Of a stretch of 30,285 bases of DNA, positions 1 to 7,626 are shown piece after piece. This stretch comes from a virus (lineage: Duplodnaviria; Caudoviricetes). Below the pieces are notes generated by a model. It was not told the origin of the DNA. It saw only the letters and a program-made list of their open reading frames with translations, and made no database searches. The DNA lies in IMG/VR virus record IMGVR_UViG_3300032303_000212, positions 1-30,285 of that record. One strand, given 5' to 3'. The stretch's first letter is position 1. Every line of letters starts with the position of its first letter. A program made the translations under genes and the position numbers.

Positions 1-86
1 ACTACCAAGAGTCCGATTCTTGTTAAGACGCATCAGCTTTGTGTTCTAGACCACGCTGCCTAACTTCGTCATAATATGTTTTTATA

Positions 87-160
87 TGGTGCTCCTTACT
101 GGTAACGATCCAGTGTCTATACATTACCAATGTATTATAATACCTTTATACTAAAAGAGC
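87..160 (-). tRNA. tRNA-Thr(GGT), encoded CCA, non-canonical T-loop
   Basis: Reverse complement folds as GCTCTTT/AAGGAGC acceptor, ATACA-TTGGTAA-TGTAT anticodon arm, ACTGG-ATCGTTA-CCAGT T-arm, ending A-CCA. Confidence 0.9.
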
Positions 161-169
161 AAGAGTGAG

Positions 170-844
170 TTATTTTTCTATTATGATACAACTTTGTATG
201 CACCCTAGAGCATTCTTTGGTGCAGATACTAATGTATGCTTATATGACTGTAACATGGTAGACAGATACTCTTTTTTAAAGAAAAGTAAAAGCCATGATT
301 TACTTTCAGCAATTTTACTTAATTCGTTATTATTGAGATATGCATAATCATTTGTTTTGATTATGTCACAATATCCCATATCTTTAATTCTTTTGTTATA
401 AAAGAAATTAGTTGTGATAGTGTCATCTACGTCTAGCCAAGTTAACAACATTTTCCCAGAAGGCTTTAATTTACTATAAAGCCATTCGATTGTTTCAACC
501 ATATCTTCAACAGAAGTATGTGTTAATACACTATAACTGATTATAGTATCATACTGATTATGAACTAAGGTTGGTCTGTTGCCGTATATACCCTGTGGGT
601 TATATACATGATTAAATCCATTATATAATATAAAGGTTGCATCTGGAAATAATTTTTTCCCCTCACTTATAGCGGTCTCATCAATATCTATTCCGGTATA
701 GTTTTTTTCTGGAAAAACATTATTACTACTATCCAAAAATGTTCCGTAATTTGATCCATAATCTAATACGGTCCCATTTAAAATTTCAGGATGTAATGTT
801 TTAAAATAGTTAAAAGTATTTTTATGATAATTAATTTTTGGCAT
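170..844 (-). CDS. Class I SAM-dependent methyltransferase
   Basis: 224 aa; motif I VLDYGSNYG, acidic motif YTGIDID, YDTIISYSVLTH, LKPSGKML; TAAATA element 4 nt upstream of the ATG. Confidence 0.85.
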   Translation of the reverse strand: MPKINYHKNTFNYFKTLHPEILNGTVLDYGSNYGTFLDSSNNVFPEKNYTGIDIDETAISEGKKLFPDATFILYNGFNHVYNPQGIYGNRPTLVHNQYDTIISYSVLTHTSVEDMVETIEWLYSKLKPSGKMLLTWLDVDDTITTNFFYNKRIKDMGYCDIIKTNDYAYLNNNELSKIAESKSWLLLFFKKEYLSTMLQSYKHTLVSAPKNALGCIQSCIIIEK

Positions 845-865
845 AGAGTATTTAACAAAATAAAT

Positions 866-942
866 TGGTGCGACCGGAGAGATTCGAACTCCCGACTCCT
901 AAGTTCGTAGCCTAGTACTCTATCCAACTGAGTTACGGTCGC
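866..942 (-). tRNA. tRNA-Arg(ACG), encoded CCA
   Basis: GCGACCG/CGGTCGC acceptor, ACTC/GAGT D-stem, CTAGG-CTACGAA-CTTAG anticodon arm, canonical TTCGAAT T-loop, A-CCA. Confidence 0.97.
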
Positions 943-952
943 ATAATAAAAC

Positions 953-1010
953 AGGATAGCATTTTTTTTCATAAACGTTGAAAGTTTTTTTGATTTGCTG
1001 TTGCTATCCT
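953..1010 (-). ncRNA. Putative small stem-closed RNA between tRNA-Asn and tRNA-Arg
   Basis: Perfect 9-bp terminal stem AGGATAGCA/TGCTATCCT enclosing ACAGCAAATC and A-tracts; fills the inter-tRNA spacer. Confidence 0.45.
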
Positions 1011-1015
1011 AAAAC

Positions 1016-1094
1016 TGGCTCCGTATCTGGGTAACGATCCCAGCTAGTCATTGATTAACAGTCAAGTCCGTGCACCATGCTCGGATTCTACGGA
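1016..1094 (-). tRNA. tRNA-Asn(GTT), encoded CCA, non-canonical T-loop
   Basis: TCCGTA/TACGGA acceptor (G7.A66 mismatch), TCCG/CGGA D-stem, TTGA-CTGTTAA-TCAA anticodon arm, CTGGG-ATCGTTA-CCCAG T-arm, G-CCA. Confidence 0.88.
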
Positions 1095-1103
1095 ATAAAT
1101 TAC

Positions 1104-1218
1104 TGGAGATGTTATGAGGGCTCTTACCCCATCGTTGTTTGTATAGGTTGCGCAGCCTATACGTCCCGGACACATTTCCTGACCCGGCGATGCTTACTTT
1201 GTGGCTCTTGCTTTCCAC
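1104..1218 (-). ncRNA. Putative structured RNA of unknown class
   Basis: GC-rich spacer with hairpins GTGG/CCAC, CCGGG/TCCGG, GTATAGG/CCTATAC, a CATCG/CGATG closing stem, a T-arm-sized hairpin and a 3' CCA. Confidence 0.5.
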
Positions 1219-1225
1219 TTGATTT

Positions 1226-1299
1226 TGGCAGGGGCACTAGGGATTGAACCTAGGCTAACAGAGTCAAAGTCTGTTGTGCTACCATTACACAATGCCCCA
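1226..1299 (-). tRNA. tRNA-Gln(TTG), encoded CCA
   Basis: GGGGCA/TGCCCC acceptor (U1.U72 unpaired), ACAGA-CTTTGAC-TCTGT anticodon arm, CTAGG-TTCAATC-CCTAG T-arm, G-CCA. Confidence 0.95.
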
Positions 1300-1305
1300 A
1301 TAAAT

Positions 1306-1533
1306 TTGTAACGCACTATTTCTAATGCGTGTATTAAAGCACTCTACATGGGTACGTACCCACTTGTCACCTTTCGGCTAGAGAATGCTTTAATACGCTT
1401 AGATTTTTTACACTACAACTAGTGCTTCATCCCTAAGGCCGCCCGTTCGTCCATGTTTAAAGTGCAGACTAGGTCCTCGTTACCTATACACACTGTCTCT
1501 CCACTACGCAACTTTATAGCTGCTTCTTAATTA
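1306..1533 (-). ncRNA. Putative ~230-nt structured RNA heading the tRNA array
   Basis: Starts at the predicted TSS of the 1540-1568 promoter; 11-bp stem GTATTAAAGCA/TGCTTTAATAC, two GAAA-tetraloop hairpins on the minus strand, further hairpins; no ORF in the track. Confidence 0.6.
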
Positions 1534-1539
1534 ACCCTT

Positions 1540-1568
1540 AGTATAACAGAGTATCCATTTACTGTCAA
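1540..1568 (-). promoter_or_regulatory. Sigma70-type promoter for the ncRNA/tRNA array
   Basis: TTGACA-17 nt-TATACT with extended -10 TG on the minus strand. Confidence 0.88.
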
Positions 1569-1577
1569 ACTTTGTTA

Positions 1578-1595
1578 TGTTGTTTTTATACAACA
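1578..1595. promoter_or_regulatory. Palindromic operator-like site upstream of the -35 box
   Basis: TGTTGT-N6-ACAACA inverted repeat 9 bp upstream of TTGACA. Confidence 0.45.
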
Positions 1596-1596
1596 C

Positions 1597-1637
1597 AAAA
1601 GCAGAAACCCCTGAGACTTTTTAGTTTCCCAGGGGTT
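1597..1637 (-). terminator. Intrinsic terminator (attenuator-type)
   Basis: 11-bp stem AACCCCTGGGA/TCTCAGGGGTT (one G-U), 10-nt loop, followed by TCTGCTTTT. Confidence 0.75.
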
Positions 1638-1663
1638 GAATAAATTTGTTATGATGTAACTTG

Positions 1664-1798
1664 TTATTCCGTTCCCCGGGCACCTCTTTGGTTATCATTG
1701 CCGCGAATACTTGTAGGATATGATGCCGCAAAGGTCGCTAAGGCCTCTATAGACCATAGCCCCGTATGTTTCGGCATGTAACAAGTTTTATTCATCAT
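1664..1798 (-). CDS. Putative leader (attenuator) peptide, 44 aa, MMNKTCYMPKHTGLWSIEALATFAASYPTSIRGNDNQRGARGTE
   Basis: ATG..TAA ORF below the ORF-track cutoff, downstream of a sigma70 promoter and a CTAAATA element; its last codons can pair with the terminator 5' arm; Shine-Dalgarno is weak (AGGA 14 nt upstream). Confidence 0.65.
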   Translation of the reverse strand: MMNKTCYMPKHTGLWSIEALATFAASYPTSIRGNDNQRGARGTE

Positions 1799-1865
1799 AG
1801 TATTCTATTTAGTCCTGATTAAAAATAACAGCAAATAACATAGTGTTTTTACTGTTTATGCATGT

Positions 1866-1894
1866 ATTGTATAGCATCGTCCTATTAAAGTCAA
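1866..1894 (-). promoter_or_regulatory. Sigma70-type promoter upstream of the leader ORF
   Basis: TTGACT-17 nt-TACAAT on the minus strand in an intergenic gap. Confidence 0.8.
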
Positions 1895-1910
1895 CAGTCA
1901 GATTACCCAT

Positions 1911-2477
1911 TTATTTGGTTCCTATAATCATATATCTTGTAAAATCCCAGTCAACATAATCATCGTTTCCTGGCACAGCATAATCAAATTTTATACTACC
2001 TTCATATTCAATACTAGATAAAGGATAATTTTGTTTAAAACTATCCAATGATTCACTATGCACAAAATGATCATCATGTAACATATTGTTACCCTGAAGT
2101 ATCATTCTAGTTCCTGCAGGAATATTATGAAACCAATCCGTCGACAGAAAATGTTCAGTAGAAGTGTTAATAATCAAATCACAATAGCCTTCAACTATGT
2201 TACTACAATCGCTAGTATGTGCGTTAAATTTACGTTGTATTACCCAATTGTCGTTAATCATTCTTGCAACTGATTCACATTCTGGATCAATGTCAAAACT
2301 TTCAATATTATTAACTTTAAATTTTCCGCGACTGAATAATAAAAAAGCGGTCATAGCGTACCACCCGCCATAAATGTGAGTAGTATCACTAGACCACTGT
2401 AAATTCTCTAATTCTTCACATAGCCAGATTTTACTAGTGATCTGACCGTGTGAGAATGAATCTTTGTTTACTTCCAT
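1911..2477 (-). CDS. Putative SAM-dependent methyltransferase (phage type)
   Basis: 188 aa; IYGGWY Gly-loop, IESFDIDP acidic motif, DLIINTSTEH motif consistent with a Rossmann methyltransferase fold. Confidence 0.65.
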   Translation of the reverse strand: MEVNKDSFSHGQITSKIWLCEELENLQWSSDTTHIYGGWYAMTAFLLFSRGKFKVNNIESFDIDPECESVARMINDNWVIQRKFNAHTSDCSNIVEGYCDLIINTSTEHFLSTDWFHNIPAGTRMILQGNNMLHDDHFVHSESLDSFKQNYPLSSIEYEGSIKFDYAVPGNDDYVDWDFTRYMIIGTK

Positions 2478-2488
2478 TGTAAAATGGT

Positions 2489-2623
2489 TTAGAGTGCCAT
2501 TTCCTCATAATCTTCCTTACCACATCCGCACTCAGGACAAACATGGTCATCGGGAAGTTGTTCCCATTTACCTTCAATTGATTCATCGTGGACATGTCCA
2601 CATATTACACAAACGTGTTCCAT
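2489..2623 (-). CDS. Rubredoxin (short form), 44 aa
   Basis: Not in the ORF track: MEHVCVICGHVHDESIEGKWEQLPDDHVCPECGCGKEDYEEMAL; two CxxCG motifs and WxxLPDD; start overlaps the rubrerythrin stop (TAATG). Confidence 0.92.
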   Translation of the reverse strand: MEHVCVICGHVHDESIEGKWEQLPDDHVCPECGCGKEDYEEMAL

Positions 2624-3072
2624 TATAGTGTCTCCAATTTTTGTTGATATGCTGCTGCGTGACGTTGTTCAACTTTAGCTAAGGCAGCAAATCGTTTTCC
2701 AGCTTTATTCAATAGTTCTTTGAATTGTTCCGCGTGTTCTTTTGATTCTTGTATTTGCATATTAGCTTCGTTAGCAAAAACTAAATCACCTTCAAATTCA
2801 GCAGTTTCTTTAAAGTCTGGGTACATGATTTCAAATTCATATGTTTCCCCTTTAATTGCCATTTCTAAACATTCTTTAGTCGTAGGTTTCTTAATCATTA
2901 ACTCTAAGTGACCCCATGCATGTAGAATCTCTTGGTCTGCGGTGTGTTCAAAATGTTTTGCTATTTCTTCATGACCTTCTTCTCGGGCAATTCTAGCAAA
3001 ATAACGATATTTGGTATGTGCTTGTGACTCACCTGCAAAAGCGTCTGCTAAGTTTTCCATTGTTTGTGACAT
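2623..3072 (-). CDS. Rubrerythrin-family diiron protein (no fused rubredoxin domain)
   Basis: NLADAFAGESQAHTKYRYFA, EILHA, AIKGETYE, ESKEHA diiron motifs; AAGGAG RBS. Confidence 0.92.
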   Translation of the reverse strand: MSQTMENLADAFAGESQAHTKYRYFARIAREEGHEEIAKHFEHTADQEILHAWGHLELMIKKPTTKECLEMAIKGETYEFEIMYPDFKETAEFEGDLVFANEANMQIQESKEHAEQFKELLNKAGKRFAALAKVEQRHAAAYQQKLETL

Positions 3073-3096
3073 AATTACTCCTTGTGTGTCTAAAAT

Positions 3097-3104
3097 TATT
3101 TATC
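3097..3104 (-). promoter_or_regulatory. Late-promoter-like GATAAATA element
   Basis: Same octamer recurs upstream of genes at 14649-14656 and 27100-27107; resembles T4 late TATAAATA. Confidence 0.6.
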
Positions 3105-3119
3105 TAGTCACAAGTGGCA

Positions 3120-3641
3120 TCACTCTTTTTCTGAGTCAAGAACACCAATAAAATGCAATCTGCTTTCTTCAGAACAATTCATAAAAGTATGTAGTTCTGT
3201 TGTTTTTACTTTATAAACTTTACCAGCCGGCATATGCTCAATCAACCCCTGTTTAAACACAAAAAAACATTGCGGATTGGTAATTAATGGAATATGTAGC
3301 CTAGGGGTAGTATCTCTATGCATAGAATAACAAGACATTGGATTAACCCACAACAATCTTGCTCGTTTTACGTTATACTGATTGATTAATTCTTCAAAAA
3401 TAGTATCTTTAAAAAATGGATTTATTTCAGTATATGTTAACTCTTGTCCTTTACTAACTCCAACTGCGCTAGTCCAGGGGTCTTCGCCAAATTTATATTG
3501 AAGTCCTACTTGACGACCCTTTGTGCCACCTTGAAACCATTGAATATTTTCTTCTAATTTAAAATAAGATTTTAATATTGGTTTTGTATCTATATCACAC
3601 AAAGTACGCATTAGTGTCATCTTATTGAATAAATTAATCAC
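3120..3641 (-). CDS. 2OG-Fe(II) oxygenase, aspartyl/asparaginyl beta-hydroxylase-like
   Basis: YSMHRD (HxD), RLHIPLITNP, HTFMN..ESRLH motifs; true start may be the ATG at 3620 or 3611. Confidence 0.75.
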   Translation of the reverse strand: MINLFNKMTLMRTLCDIDTKPILKSYFKLEENIQWFQGGTKGRQVGLQYKFGEDPWTSAVGVSKGQELTYTEINPFFKDTIFEELINQYNVKRARLLWVNPMSCYSMHRDTTPRLHIPLITNPQCFFVFKQGLIEHMPAGKVYKVKTTELHTFMNCSEESRLHFIGVLDSEKE

Positions 3642-3905
3642 TTAATCATCTTCCCATTTAGAAGTTTGATTAAATCTTTGTTCTTGTATGGATTTTTCAC
3701 CAAACACTTTTTCACTATGGCATATTAAACATTTTGGATTACCGCAATCTAGTGCGTGATGTTTTGATAGTCTATGTGGTTCTCTGATGAATTTATTATG
3801 ACCCATATGACCCATTTCTTTAACAATTTTTAATTGTTTATTGATGGCATTATCATCCTTAAGCAATCTTCTACTATGCTTAAGTTTATCAGCTTCGGTG
3901 CTCAT
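3642..3905 (-). CDS. Hypothetical protein with Cys/His cluster
   Basis: 87 aa, HHALDCGNPKCLICH possible metal site; packed between neighbours. Confidence 0.7.
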   Translation of the reverse strand: MSTEADKLKHSRRLLKDDNAINKQLKIVKEMGHMGHNKFIREPHRLSKHHALDCGNPKCLICHSEKVFGEKSIQEQRFNQTSKWEDD

Positions 3906-3906
3906 A

Positions 3907-4287
3907 CTAGTGCTTCTTTCTGTAATCTTCTACTGCGGCTTTGATGGCGTCTTCGGCGAGGATGGAGCAGTGTATTTTAACTGGGGGGAGGGCGAGGTGT
4001 TCGGCGATGGTAGAGTTCTTGAGGGTTGCAGCTTCATCCAATGTTTTACCCTTGACCCACTCTGTGACAAGACTTGAAGAAGCAATTGCCGACCCGCACC
4101 CGTATGTCTTAAATTTGGCATCTGATATTATTCCTGTTATTGGGTCTACTTTGATTTGCAGTTTCATTACGTCACCGCATGCTGGGGCACCGACCATTCC
4201 TGTACCTACATCAATGTCATCTTTACTAAAATTGCCCACATTGCGGGGGTTTTCGTAATGATCAATAACTTGCTGTGAATATGACAT
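3907..4287 (-). CDS. iscU: Fe-S cluster assembly scaffold IscU
   Basis: YSQQVIDHYENPRNVG, APACGDVM, FKTYGCGSAIASSS, LPPVKIHC (HscA-binding motif); three conserved Cys. Confidence 0.97.
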   Translation of the reverse strand: MSYSQQVIDHYENPRNVGNFSKDDIDVGTGMVGAPACGDVMKLQIKVDPITGIISDAKFKTYGCGSAIASSSLVTEWVKGKTLDEAATLKNSTIAEHLALPPVKIHCSILAEDAIKAAVEDYRKKH

Positions 4288-4409
4288 TATTTAGCCTCTT
4301 TGGTAAACATTGCTAAAACTTTTGCTTGAATGTTTTTAGCAAATTGTGGTTGTGGGAAGTTCCATCCAACGAATGCACCTAAAAATAAATATAACAAAGT
4401 TTCTAACAT
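4287..4409 (-). CDS. Small membrane protein, 40 aa
   Basis: Not in the ORF track: MLETLLYLFLGAFVGWNFPQPQFAKNIQAKVLAMFTKEAK; AGGAGA RBS, CTAAATA upstream, TAATG overlap with iscU. Confidence 0.75.
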   Translation of the reverse strand: MLETLLYLFLGAFVGWNFPQPQFAKNIQAKVLAMFTKEAK

Positions 4410-4430
4410 AATATATCTCCTGTATTGTAT

Positions 4431-4994
4431 TTAGTCGGTATAATTATCTTCTAGTACAATCCAACCCAATTTAAGTAAATCTTCACGGATTTCGTCAGTA
4501 ACTATACTTTCACTAACATATGCTTTAGTTTCAAAAATCTCTCGTCTTTGGTGATCATCCATATTCTGAAATACTTCTTCATCTATTGGTTCATCACTCT
4601 GTATACCAGTACAGTACCAATCCATATAGTCACCTTGTTCACGCATGTCAGCAACAATTGCCCCAGCATGTCTCCAACTACAACCCCATTTTTTACCAGT
4701 TAGTATAGGCCATACATCATTTCTTTGAAACTCATTATTACAAATTGCTGCGTATAGGTGTTGAGCATATACATTATCACTTTTAGCTTTCTCTATGATC
4801 CACTCAGTAGAACGCAAGTCATACTCTAAATTATCTTTGCGCCACTCTGGGTCTTGTGACCTTAATTTATCCTGAATATCATAATCCTCGTAATGCTGTA
4901 TGCTATCAATAGCATCTTGATTCAATGGATCTTCTGCTAAAGTTTCTCTATACATTTTAGTACGAAACTCATGTCTTGTTGGGCTTCTGTTCAT
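4431..4994 (-). CDS. Hypothetical phage protein
   Basis: 187 aa acidic ORF filling the gap; YAAICNNEF and SWRHAG..VADMR..GDYMDWYC motifs, no function recognised. Confidence 0.75.
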   Translation of the reverse strand: MNRSPTRHEFRTKMYRETLAEDPLNQDAIDSIQHYEDYDIQDKLRSQDPEWRKDNLEYDLRSTEWIIEKAKSDNVYAQHLYAAICNNEFQRNDVWPILTGKKWGCSWRHAGAIVADMREQGDYMDWYCTGIQSDEPIDEEVFQNMDDHQRREIFETKAYVSESIVTDEIREDLLKLGWIVLEDNYTD

Positions 4995-5511
4995 TCTTCA
5001 CCTTCTGCTTACTATAGAAAATGTGATTGCCAATTATTGCTACTTGTTTATAAGGCCACAATGGATCAATGTGTATTGAATGAAAGAACAATGCTGATTT
5101 AGGGACAACATTCTTATACATATCAAAAACCATTACATCATACGCAACTTGTAATGCTCGTTTATATTTTGGATTTGATTTACTTGGATCAGTTTTGTCT
5201 GCACAAACCCAACTAAACTGACATACTACATTTTCGTTAATTAATGTTTTTTGGTAGATAACTTTGCAAGGTGTTTCAGCAAACCCATGATTAACACGAT
5301 TCAACACTACTCTTGCAACTGCGGCTTGTCCGGGCATTGCTTCTGCCCCTGCTTCATAATAAATATTTCTTGCCATACATGCTATTTGCTTCATATCAAT
5401 TTTCTTTAAAATAGGTAAATCAATAGCAATTTGTGTAGGCGAAGGAATAGCCATGATTGTTAAAAACAGCATGGTCATTATTATTAACTTATTTTTTAAT
5501 GATAATAACAT
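4969..5511 (-). CDS. Cell wall hydrolase, SleB/CwlJ (Hydrolase_2) family with N-terminal hydrophobic segment
   Basis: CMARNIYYEA (catalytic Glu), AVARVVLNRV, CQFSW, IGNHIFY. Confidence 0.92.
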   Translation of the reverse strand: MLLSLKNKLIIMTMLFLTIMAIPSPTQIAIDLPILKKIDMKQIACMARNIYYEAGAEAMPGQAAVARVVLNRVNHGFAETPCKVIYQKTLINENVVCQFSWVCADKTDPSKSNPKYKRALQVAYDVMVFDMYKNVVPKSALFFHSIHIDPLWPYKQVAIIGNHIFYSKQKVKNEQKPNKT

Positions 5512-5522
5512 AATTTCCTTTC

Positions 5523-5568
5523 ACTGTAGTATACTACAGTTTTGTTGATTAACCAAATCTTTTGGTTA
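5523..5568 (-). promoter_or_regulatory. Candidate promoter of the hydrolase overlaid by two palindromes, one matching a LexA box
   Basis: TTGGTT-17-TATACT; perfect 18-bp palindrome ACTGTAGTATACTACAGT (5523-5540) and TAACCAAA-N3-TTTGGTTA (5550-5568). Confidence 0.55.
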
Positions 5569-7626
5569 GTGTATCCAGCAATCGCAGTTACAAAGTATAA
5601 CTTGTTCAATTGCGGCTTGTACTGGTAATGATGCAGGTAACAACACTCCAGAAGTATATATCGGATTTAGTGATGGTGGGATTAATTTAGTATATGGTGA
5701 TCCTGCTAAACTTCCCGGTACAATAGGCCCTCCACCTTGACCACCTAGCCCACCTCCCGCCCCGGGTGCGACTAATGGTGCACCGCCTGTTATCCCCGGT
5801 GATCCTATCCCGATAGCATTTGGTATGACAGGAATATTGTCCGGCGTGCCTATACCTAAAATAGAAGCTACCGTTGTTGCAGGCGCACCTAAAATGCTAG
5901 GTTGTACTGCAACAGTATTTTGTGATGGATTAGTAATAGGATCAGTAGGGGTAGATGTATTAAACGGATTAGCAGCCGGGTTGGCTGCTTGACTAGTTAT
6001 AACAGGAGCTTGAGTTATTAAAAAGTTTTCAGTAGCTGGATCAAAGTAGCCTGCAGGTTCAGTATTAAAAGGGAATGCAGGTGCTGAATTTGCTACCGTA
6101 CCATTAGATATTAATGCTATCTGTTCTGCTAGAGGTAAAACATCATCTATAACGTCATCAGTTGATATACCAGCTTCTAACAATCTTGCTTTGTTTCTGT
6201 CCGCTCTCATCATTGCTACTATACTTTGCCCTGCATTTATATCTAAATCTGATATAGCTTCTAATGTTTGTGCAGCCATGTTTGGTTCTGTTAATTTAGC
6301 ATAGCTAGGAACTAAGTCAGTAAAGCTATACACCATTATTGGATATGGGAATAAACTATCTGTTCTTGGATCTGGGACTATTGATAATCCTGTGTTTCTA
6401 GCACGCTGTTCAATATTTAATTGAGTACCTAAATTATCCCACGTGTCATTTAATTCTAATGATTGTCCGGGATGAGTGGAGCGTATTATTGCTATTTCAG
6501 CATTGGCTGCGTTAATGTATGATTGAACTACTGTATCTAAATCAGGTGTTAGTGCAGGAGGGGCTTGTATAGTTACATTCAATGTAGCAGGAGGTGCAGA
6601 TGGAATGGGACTAGCACCCGAACCATATAGAACACTTGATCCTGGCGAACCTAGCAATCCACTAAGTACTTTACCAAATGTAGTAGACCCGTTATTTACT
6701 ACCGGTTTAGTATCAATTGTCGTTATTAAAGTAGCACCTGATCCGCCATCTATAGTTGCAGTTGGGGCCGCTGCTCCATTTCTCCCGTAGCCGCCACCAC
6801 CATTGAATGATGATATTCCCTGAATTGAGAGTATTTGATAATAATAATTATAGTTACCAAATCCGTCAGAGACAGCAGATGTTGAATAACCTGGGGTAAC
6901 AGTTGCTGTTGCTTGTTCCCATGTAAGTGCCAACCAAAGATTTTGATATATAGTTGATAAGGTGTTAGATTGTAGTCCTATAATAGCAGGTTGTATTTGT
7001 ACCCAGGGGTAAGGCAAACCAGACATACATCCAAAGAAATCAGAAAAAGTATATGTCCCGTATGGGCCGCTGCCCAATGCCATCAACGCAAGTGCAGCCT
7101 TTGCTTCAGCGGTATCAGTTGGAACATCAGTTCCGTTGACTAAGTTTAATCCCCTAGTAGTTTCTAGTGTTGCTGCTACCTGTGCAAATTTCTCTATAGG
7201 AATATTCCGTATGTTTTTTATTTGTTGCATCGTTGCAGAGAATGCTCCTGCAGTAGTAGCTAAATCTTTAGGTAATATACCGCCAAGATACGAACCAAAC
7301 CCTTCTGGTATTATCTGTAGATTAACTTGTATGGTACTTGATGTTGCTACAGTTGCTGCTGCAATATCTTCTGGCTGTGCTGTAGGGAGCAATGCAGGTG
7401 CAACTAGTTGAGCAGAAAATATTGCTGCTTCATTCGTTGTTGTTGATTCTGTTACTGCTGCTGCAATTGCTTCTACTTGTGCCGATGCTGCCATTGCCGG
7501 AGGAATTATATTAGGAACATTAGTTATACCTCCACCATTATCTACGGCGTAGGTCATCCTATTCACAATACCACCACCTTCAATCTCTGCTCTAAGATTA
7601 AGAAAATCTCTATACATCTGTACCAT
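5566..7626 (-). CDS. Hypothetical, probably virion tail-tip/baseplate-associated protein
   Basis: 686 aa Ala/Gly/Pro/Thr-rich, C-terminal CNCDCW; next to PAAR; function inferred from context only. Confidence 0.65.
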   Translation of the reverse strand: MVQMYRDFLNLRAEIEGGGIVNRMTYAVDNGGGITNVPNIIPPAMAASAQVEAIAAAVTESTTTNEAAIFSAQLVAPALLPTAQPEDIAAATVATSSTIQVNLQIIPEGFGSYLGGILPKDLATTAGAFSATMQQIKNIRNIPIEKFAQVAATLETTRGLNLVNGTDVPTDTAEAKAALALMALGSGPYGTYTFSDFFGCMSGLPYPWVQIQPAIIGLQSNTLSTIYQNLWLALTWEQATATVTPGYSTSAVSDGFGNYNYYYQILSIQGISSFNGGGGYGRNGAAAPTATIDGGSGATLITTIDTKPVVNNGSTTFGKVLSGLLGSPGSSVLYGSGASPIPSAPPATLNVTIQAPPALTPDLDTVVQSYINAANAEIAIIRSTHPGQSLELNDTWDNLGTQLNIEQRARNTGLSIVPDPRTDSLFPYPIMVYSFTDLVPSYAKLTEPNMAAQTLEAISDLDINAGQSIVAMMRADRNKARLLEAGISTDDVIDDVLPLAEQIALISNGTVANSAPAFPFNTEPAGYFDPATENFLITQAPVITSQAANPAANPFNTSTPTDPITNPSQNTVAVQPSILGAPATTVASILGIGTPDNIPVIPNAIGIGSPGITGGAPLVAPGAGGGLGGQGGGPIVPGSLAGSPYTKLIPPSLNPIYTSGVLLPASLPVQAAIEQVILCNCDCWIH

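Follow-up and report, generated by a model that had tools for sequence, protein, structure and literature searches.

Why large phages carry near-complete sets of tRNA genes is a long-standing question, with codon bias and compensation for tRNA loss as the two competing answers. The locus described here raises it in a specific form: can transcription of such a set be made to depend on the state of the tRNA pool in the infected cell? The window (the whole stretch analysed, 30,285 nucleotides of IMG/VR record IMGVR_UViG_3300032303_000212) is part of a large phage and encodes a class Ia ribonucleotide reductase, a cell-wall hydrolase, an IscU-like protein and giant collagen/laminin-G proteins, with genes for tRNA-Gln, -Arg and -Thr on the minus strand at its left end. 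An earlier reading, made from the sequence alone, had proposed that a short ORF upstream of these genes is a codon-sampling leader peptide gating the tRNA array. As judged from sequence and its conservation, the leader element is real and strongly conserved, and it probably represents a new form of ribosome-mediated attenuation.

Origin of the locus

Close relatives were found on IMG/VR contigs of up to 303 kb, and no cultured phage in INPHARED matched window positions 1400-1900. The one pointer to affiliation, the late-promoter motif described below, suggests a T4-like phage. Among 12 matches in a scan of bacterial and archaeal genomes, one was a family member (L273), located on a phage-like 13-kb MAG contig. 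Its leader groups with the phage clade, and it was not accepted as evidence for a host.

Leader ORF of the window

The leader ORF (1664..1798, minus strand) comprises 44 sense codons, 37 of them distinct, specifies 19 amino acids (all but Val) and covers 24 of the 25 tRNA decoding classes defined below. The counts of the sequence-only reading were reproduced in full, including the presence of all four Thr and all four Gly codons, of three codons each for Arg, Ala and Ser, and of many GC-ending codons (GC3 of 43% vs 22% in the genes of the window). Its estimate for uniform codon sampling was likewise accurate (31.5 distinct codons). At least 37 distinct codons were obtained with a probability of 0.010 under uniform sampling and 0.006 in open nucleotide shuffles, and they occurred in 0 of 8402 windows of real genes; the permutation against genome codon usage that had been suggested as a check placed the diversity beyond expectation (1e-5). 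The most repeated codon is ATG (three copies), and the leader is maximally diverse, lacking any control-codon run devoted to a single amino acid or a few. Ala accounts for 5 of the 44 residues (mean of 3.8 copies across 28 leaders). Codon 25 is GCA, with GTA in close relatives, and this Val-to-Ala allele is common to 3 of the 20 closest loci, two others of which lack Phe. The peptide matched no Pfam or PHROG family. When Rfam was run on window positions 1-6000 at E<=5, only tRNAs reached the gathering score, and no T-box, riboswitch or ncRNA model did.

Upstream of the ORF, the sigma-70-type promoter P1 (TTGACT-17-TACAAT; 1866..1894, minus strand; 10/12 consensus positions) was confirmed at 1894-1866, and an equivalent precedes 23 of 28 diverged leaders (shuffle background 0.2%). 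A 5' UTR hairpin is predicted at 1828..1856 (minus strand), with similar inverted repeats recognized by eye in relatives. The ribosome-binding site had been flagged as weak, and it is: the SD-like AGGA lies 14 nt before the ATG and is fused to CTAAATA, a candidate T4-type late promoter (1806..1816, minus strand). CTAAATA, from position -12, is described as a putative late promoter of the T4-like phage Aeh1 in part of a published report (PMC1524935). The spacing between CTAAATA and ATG is 7 or 8 nt in 92 of 97 family members, chosen with a spacing of <=8, among the matches listed, and ATAAATA stands 18-25 nt before four successive genes of the large-gene block of the window. A transcript from the candidate late promoter would begin about 2 nt ahead of the ATG; being near-leaderless, it could explain the weak ribosome-binding site.

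Collection of related leaders

Since the single-locus probability is only 0.006-0.01 against composition-matched nulls, the relatives are decisive. A scan with the terminator pattern yielded at least 121 loci (about 330 estimated), of which a peptide-pattern filter kept 41, with tRNA genes downstream of most. The loci were then collected afresh so that the outcome itself played no part in their choice: a 15-base motif preceding the ATG, which depends neither on what the ORF contains nor on the terminator, served as the anchor, and 120 of about 180 viral loci were listed. A complete ORF of 35-70 codons followed the anchor in 97 of the 120 listed loci, which bears out the expected conservation of a short ORF upstream of tRNA arrays, and the remaining 23 (short, long or truncated) were set aside. 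Among the matches listed, all 20 amino acids are present in 90 of the 97 leaders (3 others lack Val, 2 Asp, 1 Cys and 1 Phe), at least three tRNAs follow each of the 46 leaders with a 1.5 kb flank (relaxed ARAGORN threshold), and tRNAs follow none of the 13 set-aside loci with such a flank. A metagenome scan, with 119 of about 340 loci listed, gave 81 loci with a 35-70-codon ORF and 38 that were set aside; among the matches listed, 68 of these 81 leaders are complete for the 20 amino acids and 26 of 27 precede tRNAs. Completeness is not absolute, because the Val-less allele circulates (3 of 97 viral and 5 of 81 metagenome loci, among the matches listed).

At <70% identity, 28 leaders were retained, 25 of which contain 20 of 20 amino acids (1.15 expected from pooled composition); the corresponding rate was 18% in column-resampled and 65% in single-crossover chimeras. 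Cys, His and Trp average 1.0-1.1 copies per leader. As the leaders are related to one another, the family counts are not independent.

Terminator and antiterminator

The predicted antiterminator (1628..1680, minus strand) pairs CCCGGGG (1680-1674, codons 40-42) with CCCTGGG (1634-1628), so that the stop codon of the leader sits within the hairpin. It folds as the sequence-only reading had drawn it, at -18.1 kcal/mol (4 of 200 shuffles as good). The intrinsic terminator (1597..1637, minus strand) consists of the proposed 11-bp stem at 1637-1606 (-17.1; 1 of 200 shuffles as good) and an imperfect U-tract (5 T of 8); it was not listed by the consensus scan, whose loop limit is 8; the loop here is 10. 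The proposed mutual exclusion of the two structures applies to the outer 7-bp helix but not to the inner GAATAA/TTATTC stem, which can coexist with the terminator in a 150-nt fold.

In all 27 testable leaders, the end of the ORF is predicted to pair with at least 6 nt of the 5' arm of the terminator, and in 24 of them this pairing beats shuffles at p<=0.05. Two architectures were distinguished: the pairing strand lies about 7-15 nt before the stop codon in short leaders and about 21-42 nt before it in long ones. Covariation, anticipated for both hairpins, is clear for the terminator (in two alignments of 13, 95.8% and 98.8% of the cells are paired and the two-sided changes number 3 and 2) and modest for the antiterminator (80-86% pairing, in structures derived from the same sequences; two-sided pairs equalled in 60/500 and 29/500 shuffles). 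Because RNAalifold on MAFFT alignments recovered the antiterminator weakly, per-sequence folds were used.

Ribosome stalling was simulated by masking the RNA under the ribosome, assumed to extend 12 nt past the A site. For the window, the antiterminator had a probability of about 0.8 with stalls at codons 1-36 and of zero from codon 39 onward, the latter following from the mask. The same step was seen in all 27 leaders, and in each of them the antiterminator dominated the simulated nascent RNA at >=80% of the upstream stall positions. The claim that stalling at any upstream codon gives read-through would thus hold up to about codon 37 and fail for later codons, given the assumed footprint. At equilibrium with an upstream stall, the terminator wins (about 0.9 in the window; mean 0.71; <0.5 in 6 of 27 leaders), so the decision must be kinetic, as it is in trp attenuation. 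The simulations revealed no helix that sequesters the antiterminator strand, and at equilibrium the terminator forms when the whole leader is folded without translation. Among contigs from RNA runs (4 examined of 20 listed, all 20 with <0.3 of the words), X4 spans the leader of relatives, and X1 and X10 bridge the terminator; they were set aside as support, since contigs cannot tell RNA from DNA or show transcript ends.

Coverage of tRNA decoding classes

With the peptides fixed, the synonymous-codon count of the training set was 1041 (998.5 +/- 10.2 by chance). Of the isoacceptor classes of Ile, Leu, Ser and Arg, the numbers present in the 28 leaders were 27 for ATA (Ile), 28 for TTR and 27 for CTN (Leu), 28 each for AGY and TCN (Ser), and 28 for CGH and 23 for AGR (Arg). 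Codons were grouped into 25 classes on the assumption of a minimal bacterial elongator tRNA set; the division was fixed after the isoacceptor counts had been seen and may not be that of the host. At least 24 of the 25 classes are covered by all 28 diverged leaders, as compared with 5.9 and 12.1 under two nulls with fixed peptides, and by 1 of 8402 real-gene windows. The held-out set consisted of 15 ORFs <80% identical to earlier ones, with two evident non-members left in. Eleven of the 15 cover at least 24 classes (nulls 2.6 and 5.3), their summed coverage was equalled in 0 of 1000 randomizations, and at a 70% cut 6 of 10 cover at least 24 classes (vs 1.6 and 3.0).

The raw count of distinct codons did not reach significance in the held-out leaders (p=0.088 and 0.33), which ruled it out as the selected trait. 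Of the excess codon diversity that had been predicted, decoding-class coverage stands above every null tried, and the distinct-codon number does not. On the evidence of these comparisons, the selected trait is coverage of tRNA decoding classes, so the 37 distinct codons of the window are partly luck. The content of a leader does not follow that of its array: L248 and L263 have a Val codon in their leaders although none of their 35 tRNAs is for Val, and tRNA-Phe is present in L253 and L256, whose leaders have no Phe codon. The idea that the leader matches its cargo was accordingly rejected. In 39 leaders, 24.0 classes are sampled before the antiterminator strand (22.6 in shuffled codon order); allowing a ribosome margin of 9 nt, the sensing zone no longer includes Arg-UCU in 20 of the 39 or Gly-UCC in 14.

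Proposed mechanism

The DNA directly shows the ORF and its class coverage, the sequences of the two hairpins together with their conservation, and the tRNA arrays downstream; from them we infer translation, coupling, read-through, feedback and the trigger. The locus is probably a ribosome-coupled attenuator whose leader would serve as a test track for the tRNA pool of the infected cell, in all classes but one. A ribosome keeping pace would cover CCCGGGG (codons 40-42) while the 5' arm of the terminator is made, the terminator would fold, and transcription from P1, or from the candidate late promoter, would stop near 1600. A ribosome delayed at or before about codon 37 would leave CCCGGGG free; the antiterminator would then form before the 3' arm of the terminator exists and hold until RNA polymerase has passed, and read-through would extend into the first block of tRNA genes. 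Translation of the leader would recover with the newly made tRNAs, closing the loop. Having lost its only Val codon, the window copy would be blind to Val.

A more specific version of this attenuator, to which we give a little less than even weight, is a tRNA homeostat in which a leader of 44-58 codons polls each essential host tRNA. Cleavage of a single tRNA by an anticodon nuclease would open the array, whose products would close it again, and the near-leaderless transcript from the late promoter would make the switch a gate on late tRNA supply.

The proposal that the leader senses the tRNA pool rather than an amino acid gains support from the retention of isoacceptor classes and from the coverage before the antiterminator strand. 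The same switch could have evolved to signal amino-acid starvation or a general slowing of elongation, caused by ribosome damage or drugs, with tRNA loss being incidental. With this geometry any stall would operate the switch, so there is overlap between the two readings, and coverage of all 20 amino acids is the most visible trait of the leaders. The published descriptions available in part also provide precedents: whiB7 leaders report starvation and drugs (PMC10274678), toiL senses several ribosome drugs (PMC12121999), and general translational stress switches on a tRNA array in Anabaena (PMC8421152). Twenty codons would suffice for such a sensor, yet the retention of isoacceptor classes exceeds what the peptide would predict, in the held-out leaders as well, and additional uncharged tRNA would presumably not cure starvation. 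Isoacceptors do differ in their sensitivity to starvation. Loss of tRNA remains the favoured reading, given the retention of isoacceptor classes and the fact that a greater supply of tRNA remedies its loss but not a shortage of amino acids; we consider starvation or general slowing an unlikely signal.

If the attenuator works as proposed, a class-complete leader wired to transcription of the array implies on-demand production, which would make the compensation idea testable with a 300-base reporter. The locus would then represent an inducible phage counter-defence and could be turned into a small genetic sensor of how healthy the tRNA pool is, of use in screening tRNA-cleaving defence systems, with the natural Val-less allele of the window as a built-in specificity control.

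Promoters and the tRNA array

All tRNA genes of the window lie on the minus strand: tRNA-Gln(TTG), the first of the array, at 1226..1299, tRNA-Arg(ACG) at 866..942 and tRNA-Thr(GGT) at 87..160, where the array runs off the end of the contig. Besides these three, a fourth, for Asn, appears at a relaxed ARAGORN threshold only (1016-1092), next to a degenerate hairpin-like element at about 950-1010 (both minus strand). The close relatives L248 and L263 carry their 35 tRNAs within 9.9 kb.

The second strong promoter noted as a caveat is present. P2 (TTGACA-17-TATACT with TG; 1540..1568, minus strand) is of the sigma-70 type, matches 11 of 12 consensus positions with an extended -10 element, is nearer to consensus than P1 and, lying downstream of the terminator at 1568-1540, bypasses the switch. 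Of 56 loci, 39 have a promoter of this kind after the terminator and before the first tRNA. In 4 of the 5 long loci among close relatives, no additional strict sigma-70 promoter lies within the first block of about 13-21 tRNAs; late-type motifs occur inside this block, and the distal half of the array has several promoters. Gating of the tRNA array, as originally proposed, is therefore retained for the first block, which is shared with P2, but not for the rest; given P2 and the distal promoters, the switch would only modulate the first block. In this arrangement, P2 would set the basal level and the attenuator would add a demand-driven boost.

A different division of labour is conceivable, in which the leader and terminator are real but minor for tRNA output, P2 dominates, and the product that matters is a short terminated RNA or a trans-acting peptide. 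The strength and frequency of P2 and the advantage of the terminator at equilibrium are compatible with it, and peTrpL and rnTrpL are described, in sources available in part, as acting in trans. Leader and terminator are nevertheless retained in the 17 of 56 loci that lack a strict P2, and the antiterminator is kept in two different architectures. Moreover, residues are kept for presence rather than position (see below), which a functional peptide would not permit. We regard the dominance of P2 as improbable, more so than a starvation signal.

Several other elements were noted around the array. A methyltransferase ORF (170-844) lies between tRNA-Arg and tRNA-Thr, and the cargo between tRNAs varies among close relatives. 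The arrays of L248, L263 and L245-L247 include the unusual anticodons Leu(AAG), Ile(TAT) and Arg(TCG) at the relaxed threshold. At the head of the array, just after P2, a conserved structured non-coding RNA (1394-1500, minus strand) has no Rfam match; its core motif recurs in 18 of 63 loci with a 400 nt flank and in the distant L242/L243 family, and 13 of its 24 predicted pairs show two-sided changes (11 sequences). It is possibly a processing element or ribozyme. A palindrome, GTTG-N8-CAAC (1579-1594, minus strand), lies between the terminator and the -35 box of P2. The loose pattern was found in 12 of 28 diverged relatives, with one match overlapping P2 itself; the palindrome is a candidate operator, and P2 could be regulated too.

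Conservation of residues

Across 36 leaders, rare residues lost from their usual column were found elsewhere in 4 of 4 cases for Trp, 5 of 8 for Cys, 4 of 4 for His, 10 of 10 for Tyr and 18 of 19 for Asp (pooled odds ratio 13.9, with an alignment slip of one column allowed); a second Trp occurs in 3 of 32 leaders otherwise. This pattern indicates that residues are kept for their presence and not for their place. In 39 nearest-neighbour pairs, substitutions hit single-copy residues at 5.6% vs a background of 14.2%; the leader pN/pS in these pairs (0.61) was counted on the negative side. Relocation and the avoidance of single-copy residues would be sensible only if the frame is translated.

A nascent-chain arrest peptide of the SecM, TnaC or ErmCL type, stalling at W...PxSIR for one ligand, would call for position-fixed invariant residues. 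Such residues were not found in the leaders, though SIR is near-invariant in the training set: its Arg codon is CGC or CGT in 28 of 28 leaders, 26 of 28 have the Ser and the Ile, and in 24 of 28 Trp occupies a single column. However, Trp relocates in 4 of 36 leaders, and of the held-out leaders L335 has lost the Arg and L295 has no SIR. The motif is often the sole source of the Arg-ACG class (29 of 36), which accounts for its constancy, and an arrest peptide does not need all 20 amino acids. We consider arrest very unlikely. That the ORF is a chance frame in a structured non-coding RNA or spacer is hardly credible and strongly disfavoured, in spite of the weak SD and the modest single-locus probability, given the open 35-70-codon frame at fixed spacing in 97 of 120 listed anchor loci, indels that preserve the reading frame, near-complete amino-acid coverage, avoided single-copy residues and no Rfam family.

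Comparison with known systems

In the trpL, hisL, pheL, thrL and ilv leaders, the codons of between one and three amino acids are repeated in runs, and the genes under control are those of biosynthesis or of synthetases. Attenuators of the trp/his type share with the phage locus a short leader ORF, an antiterminator and terminator with a common strand (predicted here) and a decision set by the position and kinetics of the ribosome. They differ from it in their control-codon run and their biosynthesis or synthetase target, as the phage leader has rare residues about once each and precedes tRNA arrays; no counterpart of their 1:2 protector helix was found in the stall simulations.

The remaining systems were compared by their published descriptions, available in part. 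In the whiB7/wblC system of Actinobacteria, efficient translation of the uORF leads to a Rho-independent terminator and slow translation to an antiterminator; the amino-acid content of the uORF sets what is sensed, and that of M. smegmatis includes 19 of 20 amino acids (PMC10274678). The likeness lies in a uORF of broad composition coupled to a terminator/antiterminator pair. By these accounts, whiB7 uORFs contain 25-40% Ala, often with several residues missing, and control a transcription factor; the phage leader is near-complete down to the isoacceptor class, with Ala at 5/44, and is followed by tRNA genes and the methyltransferase ORF, with no whiB7/wblC gene. The trn operon of Anabaena, a 26-tRNA L-array induced by translational stress (PMC8421152), is similar in that impaired translation turns on a long array of tRNA genes. 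It is controlled by the protein repressor TrcR (PMC10272220), acting at the promoter, and the main text of PMC8421152 does not contain 'attenuat' or 'leader peptide'. In E. coli toiL, one uORF senses stalls at several positions (PMC12121999); as described, its targets are a ribosome-binding site and the Rho-dependent termination of a toxin-antitoxin operon, rather than an intrinsic terminator before tRNAs.

A likely purpose is suggested by phage tRNAs that counter Retron-Eco7, PrrC and PARIS (PMC11555353; PMC11464382), in that escape from tRNA-cleaving defence is sensitive to how much tRNA is supplied. With Retron-Eco7, rescue by phage tRNAs depends on how strong the promoter is (PMC11555353); a strong promoter is described there, whereas the phage leader is a putative sensor. 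No published case of a leader-peptide attenuator on phage tRNA genes was found in a search of titles and abstract openings of the matches listed, with few subscription papers. By analogy, the leader switch would work like the whiB7 attenuator.

Related elements

Elsewhere in the window (4287-4434, minus strand), CTAAATA is followed by a canonical AGGAG and an unlisted 40-codon ORF (4409-4287), whose stop codon overlaps the start of the IscU-like gene. A distant leader family (L062/L242/L244 and L089/L243) has CTAAGTA in place of CTAAATA and leaders of 41-42 codons with 17-19 amino acids, followed by a terminator of like kind and tRNA arrays.
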